From Escherichia coli (GTDB taxonomy: Bacteria > Pseudomonadota > Gammaproteobacteria > Enterobacterales > Enterobacteriaceae), in assembly GCF_045037415.1 (NCBI RefSeq), contig NZ_CP173438.1: a stretch of 64,000 nucleotides of DNA. One strand, given 5' to 3'. The position numbers and the translations under genes were made by a program. Positions 2,843-10,880 of the stretch are shown piece by piece. Each line of letters opens with the position of its first letter. Position 1 is the first letter of the stretch. The notes under the pieces are model-generated. The model worked only from the letters and a program-made list of their open reading frames with translations, did not search any database and was not told the DNA's origin.

Positions 2843-4117
2843 TTATTCACCAGATGCCTGTTGCGCTTCCGGCTTACCATAAATCAGCAACGGTTTGCTT
2901 TGACCATCAATTACCGACTCGTCGATAACCACTTTTTCGACATCTTCCATGGACGGCAGATCGTACATGGTATCGAGCAGTGCGGCTTCTACGATGGAAC
3001 GCAGGCCACGGGCACCGGTTTTACGCGCCATCGCTTTCTTAGCGATAGCATCCAGCGCCTCGTCACGGAATTCCAGATCCACGCCTTCCAGATTAAACAG
3101 CGCCTGATACTGCTTGGTCAGGGCGTTTTTCGGCTCTTTGAGGATCTGAATCAGAGCTTCTTCGCTCAGTTCATTCAACGTTGCGACAACCGGCAGACGA
3201 CCAATGAACTCAGGGATCAGACCAAACTTGATCAGATCTTCCGGTTCAACCTGCGCCAGCAGTTCACCTTCGCTGGCTTTGTCGGACTTGGCTTTCACCG
3301 TCGCGCCAAAACCAATGCCGGAGCCGGTTTCAACACGATTGGCAATCACTTTATCCAGGCCAGCAAATGCGCCGCCACAGATGAACAGGATCTTAGAGGT
3401 ATCAACCTGCAAGAATTCCTGCTGCGGATGTTTACGCCCACCTTGCGGCGGAACAGCAGCTACCGTACCTTCGATCAGTTTTAACAGTGCCTGCTGTACG
3501 CCTTCACCGGAAACGTCTCGGGTAATGGACGGGTTGTCTGACTTACGAGAAATCTTGTCGATTTCATCGATGTAGACAATCCCGCGCTGCGCTTTCTGTA
3601 CGTCGTAATCGCACTTCTGCAACAGCTTCTGAATGATGTTTTCAACGTCTTCGCCCACATAACCGGCTTCGGTCAGCGTGGTTGCGTCAGCCATGGTGAA
3701 CGGAACGTCCAGCAGGCGCGCCAGCGTTTCGGCCAGCAGCGTTTTACCGGAACCGGTCGGACCGATCAGCAGAATGTTACTTTTGCCCAACTCGACGCCA
3801 TTGCTGGTATCTCCGTTGCGCAGACGTTTGTAGTGGTTGTATACCGCGACCGCCAGCACTTTTTTCGCCTGTTCCTGACCGATAACGTAATCGTCCAGGT
3901 GGTTGCGAATTTCATGCGGCGTCGGTAGCGCACTGCGTTCACGATGCGGTGCAACTTCTTTAATCTCTTCGCGAATGATGTCGTTACATAAATCAACACA
4001 TTCGTCGCAGATATACACGGATGGACCGGCAATCAGCTTGCGCACTTCATGCTGGCTTTTGCCGCAAAAAGAGCAATACAGCAATTTGCCTGAGCCATCT
4101 TTGCGTTTATCTGTCAT
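2843..4117 (-). CDS. clpX: ATP-dependent Clp protease ATP-binding subunit ClpX
   Basis: 424 aa; N-terminal zinc-binding CSFCGK..CDEC; Walker A GPTGSGKT; matches ClpX. Confidence 0.95.
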
Positions 4118-7997: not shown

Positions 7998-9473
7998 ATG
8001 TCCAGTCAATATTTACGTATTTTTCAACAGCCGCGTTCAGCCATATTGCTGATCCTGGGTTTTGCTTCCGGGCTACCGCTCGCCCTGACGTCCGGCACCT
8101 TACAGGCCTGGATGACGGTCGAGAATATCGATCTCAAAACCATTGGTTTCTTCTCTCTGGTAGGCCAGGCTTACGTTTTTAAATTCCTCTGGTCACCACT
8201 GATGGACCGCTACACGCCCCCATTTTTCGGGCGGCGGCGCGGTTGGCTGCTCGCCACGCAAATTCTGTTATTAGTCGCCATTGCGGCGATGGGTTTTCTC
8301 GAACCAGGCACCCAGCTCCGCTGGATGGCGGCACTGGCGGTGGTGATCGCTTTTTGCTCTGCCTCCCAGGATATTGTCTTCGATGCGTGGAAAACCGATG
8401 TGCTCCCGGCAGAAGAACGTGGTGCGGGCGCGGCAATCAGCGTGCTGGGTTACCGTTTAGGGATGCTGGTTTCCGGCGGCTTAGCCCTGTGGCTGGCAGA
8501 TAAATGGCTGGGCTGGCAGGGCATGTACTGGTTGATGGCGGCGCTGTTGATCCCCTGTATTATCGCGACGTTGCTTGCACCAGAACCCACCGACACCATT
8601 CCTGTGCCCAAAACGCTGGAACAAGCGGTTGTTGCACCTCTGCGAGATTTCTTTGGTCGCAATAATGCCTGGCTTATTTTGCTTCTTATCGTGCTGTATA
8701 AGCTGGGCGACGCATTCGCTATGAGCCTGACAACCACGTTTTTGATTCGCGGCGTCGGGTTTGATGCGGGTGAAGTAGGCGTGGTTAACAAAACGCTTGG
8801 CTTACTGGCGACCATTGTTGGCGCATTGTACGGTGGGATTTTGATGCAGCGCCTGTCGCTGTTCCGTGCACTGCTGATTTTCGGCATTTTACAAGGTGCA
8901 TCTAACGCCGGTTACTGGCTGCTGTCGATTACTGATAAGCATCTCTACAGCATGGGTGCAGCCGTCTTTTTCGAAAACCTCTGTGGCGGGATGGGTACAT
9001 CAGCCTTTGTCGCGCTGTTAATGACGCTGTGTAATAAGTCATTTTCCGCTACTCAATTTGCCCTGCTCTCAGCGCTTTCTGCTGTAGGGCGAGTTTATGT
9101 CGGCCCCGTGGCGGGTTGGTTTGTTGAAGCACACGGCTGGTCGACATTCTATCTATTCTCCGTCGCCGCTGCCGTACCAGGGCTTATTTTGCTGCTGGTT
9201 TGCCGCCAGACGCTTGAATATACACGAGTAAATGACAACTTTATCTCCCGTACCGAATATCCTGCAGGTTATGCCTTTGCCATGTGGACACTGGCGGCGG
9301 GCATCAGCCTGTTGGCCGTGTGGTTACTGCTGTTGACGATGGACGCGCTGGATTTGACGCACTTCTCTTTCCTGCCTGCGCTGCTGGAAGTCGGGGTTTT
9401 AGTCGCCCTCTCTGGCGTCGTGCTTGGTGGTTTGCTGGATTATCTGGCGCTACGAAAAACACATCTGACGTAA
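7998..9473 (+). CDS. ampG: Muropeptide (anhydromuropeptide) permease AmpG, MFS family
   Basis: 491 aa multi-pass membrane protein starting MSSQYLRIFQQPRSAILLILGFASG; position next to yajG. Confidence 0.9.
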   Translation: MSSQYLRIFQQPRSAILLILGFASGLPLALTSGTLQAWMTVENIDLKTIGFFSLVGQAYVFKFLWSPLMDRYTPPFFGRRRGWLLATQILLLVAIAAMGFLEPGTQLRWMAALAVVIAFCSASQDIVFDAWKTDVLPAEERGAGAAISVLGYRLGMLVSGGLALWLADKWLGWQGMYWLMAALLIPCIIATLLAPEPTDTIPVPKTLEQAVVAPLRDFFGRNNAWLILLLIVLYKLGDAFAMSLTTTFLIRGVGFDAGEVGVVNKTLGLLATIVGALYGGILMQRLSLFRALLIFGILQGASNAGYWLLSITDKHLYSMGAAVFFENLCGGMGTSAFVALLMTLCNKSFSATQFALLSALSAVGRVYVGPVAGWFVEAHGWSTFYLFSVAAAVPGLILLLVCRQTLEYTRVNDNFISRTEYPAGYAFAMWTLAAGISLLAVWLLLLTMDALDLTHFSFLPALLEVGVLVALSGVVLGGLLDYLALRKTHLT

Positions 9474-9932
9474 TCTGTAAATATTATTTAGCTGTAGTAA
9501 TCACTCGCCGTAATTATTACGGCTAAATAAACATCAGCATCGCTTATTGATATTTGTTCTTTTGTGCGGCTTAGCGTCTGGAAATTATTGACGCCATTTA
9601 TGAATTCTATTTTTTTTACACGATTCAGCTGATGAGTCCTTATTTTCTCACCACCCAGTTGTCACCCTAATGATAGTTATTTGTTAAATAATTGTTTTAT
9701 TTTATATTGATTATACCAATTGCCCGCCCAAACTCCTTCTGCACTTCCCTTTCGTTATAACGCCCTTTTGCAACAGCTTCTTAAAATCAACTTGATATGT
9801 TTTGCAACATATGTGACCTGATAGCCAAATCCAAGTAACAGGAATTTAATCATGTTTACAGTAATGTAACCTTCCCGTAAAATGCCCACACACTTTAAAC
9901 GCCACCAGATCCCGTGGAATTGAGGTCGTTAA
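9474..9932 (+). promoter_or_regulatory. cyoABCDE promoter/regulatory region (459-bp AT-rich intergenic region)
   Basis: Long AT-rich non-coding stretch upstream of cyoA; cyo expression is known to be controlled by several global regulators; individual sites not resolved by eye. Confidence 0.6.

Positions 9933-10880
<948 letters not shown>

Follow-up and report, generated by a model that had tools for sequence, protein, structure and literature searches.

The 459-nt spacer that separates ampG from cyoA in Escherichia coli opens with inverted repeats that could serve either gene, and the question is to which of the two they belong. The earlier note on this DNA had described them as two nested repeats and had read them as a structure at the 3' end of ampG, as an operator at the far edge of the cyo promoter, or as both. 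The locus was analysed within a 64,000-nt stretch of E. coli DNA (hereafter the window, whose coordinates are used unless stated otherwise). Several E. coli chromosomes match positions 9400-9960 with 100% identity, and K-12 does so with about 96%; the RefSeq features beneath the matching stretch are ampG, named 'muropeptide MFS transporter AmpG' in the annotation of identical and near-identical E. coli records, and cyoA. The interval that had been noted (9474-9932) is the entire spacer; the inverted repeats occupy 9484-9530 and begin 10 nt past the ampG stop codon, in the 3' UTR of the yajG-ampG transcript (Table 1).

Table 1. Features of the ampG-cyoA region, in window coordinates.
Feature	Position	Strand	Basis and remarks
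ampG CDS	7998..9473	+	491 aa, stop TAA at 9471-9473; ORF list; transcript ends at the hairpin
ampG 3' UTR	9474..9536	+	about 63 nt, between stop codon and mapped terminus
Hairpin 5' arm TTATTTAGCTGTAGTAATCAC	9484..9504	+	repeat search, RNAfold, covariation; outer part 9484-9492 covaries, inner part 9493-9504 nearly invariant
Hairpin loop TCGCC	9505..9509	+	variable between genera and within E. coli; entropy 1.77 bits
Small palindrome CCGTAATTATTACGG	9508..9522	+	arises from the 3' arm together with two loop bases
Hairpin 3' arm GTAATTATTACGGCTAAATAA	9510..9530	+	repeat search, RNAfold, covariation
ampG mRNA steady-state 3' terminus	9529..9541, dominant 9536	+	TRS; 6 nt after the last paired base
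cyoA start	9933	+	ORF list

The bases quoted in the note are present, with CCGTAATTATTACGG at 9508-9522 and TTATTTAGC (9484-9492) facing the complementary GCTAAATAA (9522-9530), and they are parts of one imperfect RNA stem-loop, which is AU-rich, 47 nt long and has about 20 pairs. A repeat search returned a single inverted repeat with 21-nt arms, 86% complementary and separated by 5 nt; on the plus strand the departures from Watson-Crick pairing are two G.U wobbles and one C.A mismatch. RNAfold gave a free energy of -21.1 kcal/mol compared with -8.2 ± 2.3 kcal/mol for shuffled sequences (z = -5.6; none of 200 shuffles was as stable), and the long hairpin came out as minimum-energy and as centroid structure alike. 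Folding of the last 137 nt of the mapped transcript again gave this stable stem-loop as the terminal structure. An Rfam scan with E-values up to 10 returned only a plant miRNA hairpin, which scored 17.7 bits where the gathering score is 211, and membership of an Rfam family was rejected, this sole match being due to chance.

The repeats are thus not nested: the nested fold reached -7.6 kcal/mol, as against -20.5 kcal/mol for the long hairpin. The small palindrome, which extends to GCCGTAAT/ATTACGGC at 9507-9523 in the repeat search, is self-complementarity inside the 3' arm and no conserved structure. Its pairs have an ensemble probability of about 5e-6, and an alignment of 41 homologous sequences (described below) showed no covariation in it (65% of cells paired, 406 of 500 shuffles scoring as high). 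The palindrome pair 39:45 occurs only in the six rows with a T at column 45, namely five Escherichia sequences and one Pseudocitrobacter MAG (L084), and the palindrome is perfect in Escherichia because of a compensatory flip from U-A to A-U at pair 23:45 of the long stem in E. coli. Two natural E. coli variants, G9521A and C9508G, break it. A nested double structure or cruciform of the kind first described, although the small palindrome is perfect in the window strain, was rejected for a fold that is 13 kcal/mol worse and for the lack of covariation.

To locate the hairpin on the ampG message, we used the TRS 3'-terminus map of E. coli K-12, which lists a minus-strand peak at 452002-452014 with its dominant position at 452007 as 'ampG, Primary' (PMC10687069). 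K-12 positions (K) were converted to window positions (x) by x = 9473 + (452070 - K), and both this mapping and the sequence conventions of the table were validated with the thrL attenuator entry and an ampG-internal terminus (452390 = 9153). In the LB RNAtag-seq data (Supplementary Data 3 of that study), the adjusted p-value of the peak was 1e-32 to 1e-38 in three libraries, and the fold column for this terminus contains the same hairpin, at -18.2 kcal/mol and with a longest U run of 3; in Supplementary Data 4 the ampG CDS (452070-453545) is followed by a 3' UTR of 64 nt with its terminus at 452007 (PMC10687069). This single dataset is the source for the position of the ampG 3' end; Adams et al. 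(2021) list no 3' end, Rho-dependent or other, in the ampG-cyoA spacer in their Term-seq tables, and ampG is absent from the TERMITe tables. Read density in the ampG 3' UTR was about twice that of the CDS, the gene was not flagged as an outlier, and no transcription start site (TSS) was listed within 150 nt upstream of the terminus (TRS, PMC10687069), which argues against an independent small RNA. With the published terminus 6 nt past the stem, and with the hairpin kept through compensatory changes (see below), the first of the two proposed readings, a structure at the 3' end of ampG, is supported.

Further 3' ends lie within ampG itself. The ORF-internal small RNA 'ampG int' ends within 9100-9160 on the plus strand, its Term-seq 3' end at K-12 452393 corresponding to 9150 and the TRS terminus at 452390 to 9153; it is abundant, unaffected by deletion of hfq and present in RIL-seq chimeras with CyaR (Adams et al. 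2021). A Rho-dependent 3' end at K-12 453334 (about 8209; Adams et al. 2021) and an internal TRS terminus at K-12 453186 (about 8357; PMC10687069) suggest premature termination within the 5' part of the gene.

Rho-dependent transcripts of E. coli have been reported to possess precise steady-state 3' ends just downstream of stable stem-loops that lack a U-tract, the stem protecting the RNA against PNPase and RNase II (Dar & Sorek 2018, PMC6061677). The configuration at ampG matches this description, with a stable stem in the 3' UTR directly after the stop codon, a 3' end a few nucleotides downstream and no U-rich tail, and it leads us to read the hairpin as a putative exonuclease-blocking 3'-end stem-loop of the yajG-ampG message. 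In line with the earlier statement that no U-tract is present, the tail after the stem is ACATCAGCAT, with a longest U run of 3. We consider it likely that the hairpin defines where the mature ampG mRNA ends, as a protective stem-loop of this U-tract-less type, and it probably protects the ampG message. RNA polymerase would stop at or beyond the hairpin, and 3'-to-5' exonucleases would then trim the transcript back until blocked by the stem, leaving a stable end about 6 nt downstream of it. Because no U-tract follows the stem, the underlying termination would most likely be Rho-dependent, or else a weak hairpin-only event, further into the spacer. As a side effect, ampG transcription may be kept out of the densely packed cyo regulatory region.

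The agreement with the class of Dar & Sorek (2018) is not complete, and Rho dependence and exonuclease protection are properties described for their transcripts that are putative for the ampG hairpin. Unlike members of that class, the ampG hairpin has no C-rich, G-poor stretch of the kind expected of a rut site immediately downstream: across 9531-9620 the GC skew is about 0, an excess of C over G being confined to about 9600-9800, and the 90 nt downstream are not C-rich and G-poor. A passive barrier, moreover, would require far less sequence conservation than the inner stem has (see below). We take the hairpin for an ordinary representative of this known class, one that a published supplementary table (TRS) already contains implicitly, and the value of identifying it is mostly one of annotation: the ampG transcript gains a defined 3' UTR and a 3'-end structure, a false 'operator' lead is removed from the cyo promoter, and a well-documented example, supported by covariation, is added to the 3' stem-loops without a U-tract.

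An intrinsic terminator, which the hairpin resembles in lying right after the gene and on the sense strand, was considered and rejected. The stem is AU-rich and, with about 20 bp, unusually long; a U-tract is absent in E. coli and in most genera (mean of 3.1 T in the 10 nt after the stem, 39 genera), and a pattern scan for terminators and promoters found no terminator-like site in 9300-10100. The homologous hairpin of Yokenella has a U-rich tail and was called terminator-like on the plus strand, and in two loci (L061 and L071), in which a different context follows ampG and no downstream cyoA was detected, the hairpin is absent and canonical U-tract terminators are found. Both observations fit the reading of the hairpin as an element that defines the 3' end. 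In phage lambda, mRNA stability depends on whether the sib element, a long stem at the 3' end downstream of a gene, stays intact, a case of RNase III retroregulation. The likeness of the ampG hairpin to sib is one of analogy only and bears on the speculative reading of a recognised stem (see below); RNase III cleavage or alternative read-through forms at ampG would be hypothetical.

Within E. coli, a 68-nt query spanning the hairpin matched 5424 of 5426 complete genomes (blastn), as a rule once per genome and with at least 95% identity in all but three. Among the aligned strains the stem varies at one pair only, 9493:9521, with free variation in the loop and flanks. The pair reads U.G in the window, C-G in strain GPEC996 (T9493C) and U-A in strain 105 (G9521A); both changes turn the wobble into a Watson-Crick pair and so improve the long hairpin, the second at the expense of the small palindrome. 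In strain AHM8C160RI the changes fall in the loop (T9505C, C9508G) and on two flank bases, and the long stem is untouched.

Across genera, 80 Enterobacteriaceae loci were retrieved by a scan for AmpG relatives, and most of them have a hairpin with the core CCGTTGTAATnAC-N5-GTAATTATAACGG after the ampG stop codon. Covariation was counted on a gapless alignment of 41 sequences with a structure of 21 pairs, alignments fitted by a covariance model leaning towards the model. Eighty-four percent of the cells were paired, compared with 30-55% when the partners were slid by 1-3 columns, changes on both sides were found at 13 of the 21 pairs, and none of 500 shuffles reached any of five covariation measures; RNAalifold recovered the stem independently. 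In some lineages the outer stem has been swapped wholesale with complementarity retained, the outer arms being CTAATAAGCC/GGCTTATTAG in Klebsiella, AACGGCC/GGCCGT in L067 and CATGCGAGTCC/GGGACTCGCCATG in L084. Conservation of both arms in related genomes, on which the earlier note had staked its observation, thus holds for the outer repeat, which was kept, but not for the inner palindrome, which this criterion refutes. A covariance model built from the 41 sequences (cut-off E <= 0.01) matched the plus strand of 51 of the 80 loci, exactly once each and always just after ampG, and matched once in the 64-kb window. Such a hairpin can therefore be kept through the whole history of the Enterobacteriaceae.

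Some lineages depart from this picture. In Kluyvera (L017, L021 and L023; about 3998-4040 of these loci), the 5' arm finds its partner further downstream (TACGCTGTAGTT/GACTGCAGCGTA) and the conserved GTAATAATAAC is left in an enlarged loop. In Atlantibacter (L063, L064 and L073; about 3996-4045), GTAAT forms the loop of a different, G.U-rich stem, and Buttiauxella, Pseudescherichia and Cedecea have fragments of the hairpin only.

The core motif was also found 14 times in a metagenome collection, in every case at the 3' end of ampG and in the same orientation; 12 of the 14 matches lie between ampG and cyoA, and the other two (L101 and L102) are on DNA that ends before cyoA. No match was found in viral contigs. 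A REP-, ERIC- or MITE-like repeat or a mobile element was rejected, with one copy per window, locus and genome and no variety of contexts. That the repeats are a copy of such an element, or a nested double structure or cruciform, is hardly credible: the element is single-copy in the window, by pattern search as well as by covariance model, and in the 5424 E. coli genomes, all 14 metagenome matches are at the ampG 3' end and none is viral, and the small palindrome, perfect as it is in the window strain, is limited to rows with a T at column 45.

The strand on which the structure is selected can be told from its imperfect pairs. Read on the plus strand, the alignment contains 72 G.U cells and 30 A.C cells (34 and 9, respectively, without two near-invariant positions), and this excess favours the ampG sense strand. 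The plus-strand fold was the more stable one in 28 of 39 genera, and with the covariance model, plus-strand scores were about 7 to 37 bits higher than minus-strand scores for the same site. Together, these three results indicate that the selected structure is an RNA in the sense orientation of ampG. They bear directly on the reading of the hairpin as a terminator, or bidirectional terminator, for a minus-strand transcript running from the cyo upstream region towards ampG. The stem is nearly palindromic and folds on the minus strand too (-19.1 kcal/mol, z = -3.25), and an A-rich run, which would be a U-rich tail on the minus strand, comes before the hairpin in several genera (as in L059 and L040; mean of 3.9 in 10). 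Yet the minus-strand fold is the weaker one in those 28 genera, the U-tail is inconsistent, the conserved G.U pairs become A.C mismatches, and model scores are lower; in E. coli a U-tract is found on neither strand, and no minus-strand gene or transcript is known or annotated at the hairpin. We regard a minus-strand terminator as very improbable. A minus-strand promoter was likewise set aside on the sequence alone: TATAAT occurs on the minus strand of the 3' arm in most genera, but a conserved -35 element was not found and E. coli has AATAAT.

The second proposed reading, a cyo operator at the outer limit of the promoter, found no support in the ArcA and PdhR data. Upstream of cyo, ArcA sites are located at -38 to -7 (9852-9883) and at -231 to -189 (9659-9701), and a third ArcA ChIP-seq region, in which no ArcA motif was found, lies near -110 ('cyoA2'; Park et al. 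2013). From these coordinates the cyoA TSS is placed at about 9890 and the hairpin at -406 to -360. The sole strong promoter-like site in the pattern scan was the known cyoA promoter (9855-9883), and the ArcA site at 9852-9883 overlaps its -35 (TTTACA) and -10 (TAAAAT) elements. The ArcA regions and the PdhR box are 130-370 bp downstream of the hairpin. An ArcA site at the hairpin was rejected, as no ChIP-seq region is present there and its GTAAT repeats are 13 bp apart, compared with 11 bp for ArcA repeats; a PdhR site was rejected because the PdhR box maps to 9705-9721, and the RpoS SELEX peak at 451740 is inside ampG and off the hairpin. A literature search on cyoA with ArcA footprints returned nothing relevant.

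A palindromic DNA operator for some transcription factor, acting at about -384 from the cyoA promoter, would be compatible with several properties of the locus. The 459-bp spacer consists, up to the hairpin, of a patchwork of blocks that are conserved between genera, the distance between hairpin and cyoA is fixed at 401-419 nt, and the inner arms are conserved in sequence. Part of the spacer conservation, on the other hand, may stem only from a lack of room for indels. Besides the missing ArcA region, the GTAAT spacing and the PdhR box lying elsewhere, the replacement of the outer arms by unrelated complementary sequences in L067 and L084 speaks against an operator, as a protein-binding palindrome would not allow it. 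In addition, a conserved asymmetry of the half-sites (G versus A, C versus T) together with the G.U excess points to RNA, and 31-47 bp is a long span for an operator. On these data a DNA operator at the hairpin is improbable.

Two properties of this stem-loop are explained by a plain exonuclease barrier in neither case, namely its near-invariant inner stem and its fixed distance from cyoA. Mean entropy was 0.16-0.31 bits in the inner stem, compared with 1.15-1.17 bits in the outer stem, 1.77 bits in the loop and 1.6-1.8 bits in the flanks, the conservation of the inner stem being inflated by a seed pattern that required parts of it. Columns 25, 26, 28, 30, 31, 39-41, 43 and 44 of the inner stem are near-invariant, while loop and flanks are saturated with change, and the G.U pair 24:44 was retained by 38 of 41 sequences, with no replacement by G-C or A-U. 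The distance from the hairpin to the cyoA ATG was 401-419 nt in 36 loci from more than 20 genera. Three types of insertion (54, 135 and 276 nt) were found, all of them between the ampG stop codon and the hairpin, so that the hairpin-cyoA distance is unchanged.

These insertions occur in some Citrobacter, Raoultella and Enterobacter loci (276 nt in L012 and L028, 3977-4252; 135 nt in L016, 3977-4111; 54 nt in L046 and L079, 3977-4030). The 54-nt insertion is a GC-rich hairpin, and the longer ones resemble what we take to be ERIC/IRU elements (…AATCCCCAGGAGCTTAC…AAGTAAGTGACTGGG…).

One explanation of the inner stem would be a protein or RNase that recognises it, including the conserved G.U pair, and controls ampG mRNA stability, with or instead of the barrier; RNase III acting on the AU-rich stem of about 20 bp, or a 3'-end binder of the ProQ/FinO type, would be candidates. 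The near-invariance of the inner stem amid saturated loop and flanks, the G.U pair 24:44 that is never resolved to Watson-Crick, and the retention of GTAATAATAAC in Kluyvera, where the 5' arm pairs with a different downstream segment, are in its favour. Against it, the hairpin should, to judge from the mapped 3' end, be intact at steady state, the invariance is partly a product of alignment selection, and literature searches on ampG with ProQ returned nothing relevant, as did those on cyoA with ProQ. We hold recognition of this kind by such a putative factor to be unlikely. The invariant inner stem (GUAAU.AC / GUAAUUAUAAC), the unresolved G.U pair and the fixed 401-419 nt also suggest, as a possibility that we likewise rate as unlikely, a sequence-specific RNA element (or RNA and DNA element) for some factor, beyond the passive barrier. 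Such an element could couple ampG mRNA stability, and with it cell-wall recycling, to the respiratory cyo promoter, or could alternatively shield that promoter from ampG transcription. Among the properties described here, it is only the invariance of the inner-stem sequence that could open a new direction.

Several other features were observed in the spacer. A block at 9549-9595, strongly conserved across genera (consensus ATATTTGTTnTTTTGTGCGC ... TTTGGAAATTATTGGC), is 20-65 nt past the hairpin, at about -340 to -295 relative to the cyoA TSS; no known site could be assigned to it. A second block, TTAACCGATTCAGC at 9616-9629, has the core CGATTCAGC, which is invariant across 18 genera. Its minus strand, GCTGAATCGTGTAA, matches RSTGAAWCSNTHHW, which we take to be the Cra/FruR consensus; the pattern is perfect in most genera and has one mismatch in E. 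coli, and its matches in the window (10, with 12.8 expected) were not significant. The PdhR box at 9705-9721 is polymorphic, being ATTGATTATACCAAT in the window strain, PMV-1 and strain 105, and the consensus ATTGGTTATACCAAT in K-12, O157:H16 and GPEC996. Finally, a perfect 10-nt direct repeat, TTTTGCAACA, is present at 9766-9775 and 9800-9809, at a spacing of 34 nt; both copies belong to short palindromes, one each, and the first coincides with the ArcA ChIP-seq region 'cyoA2'.
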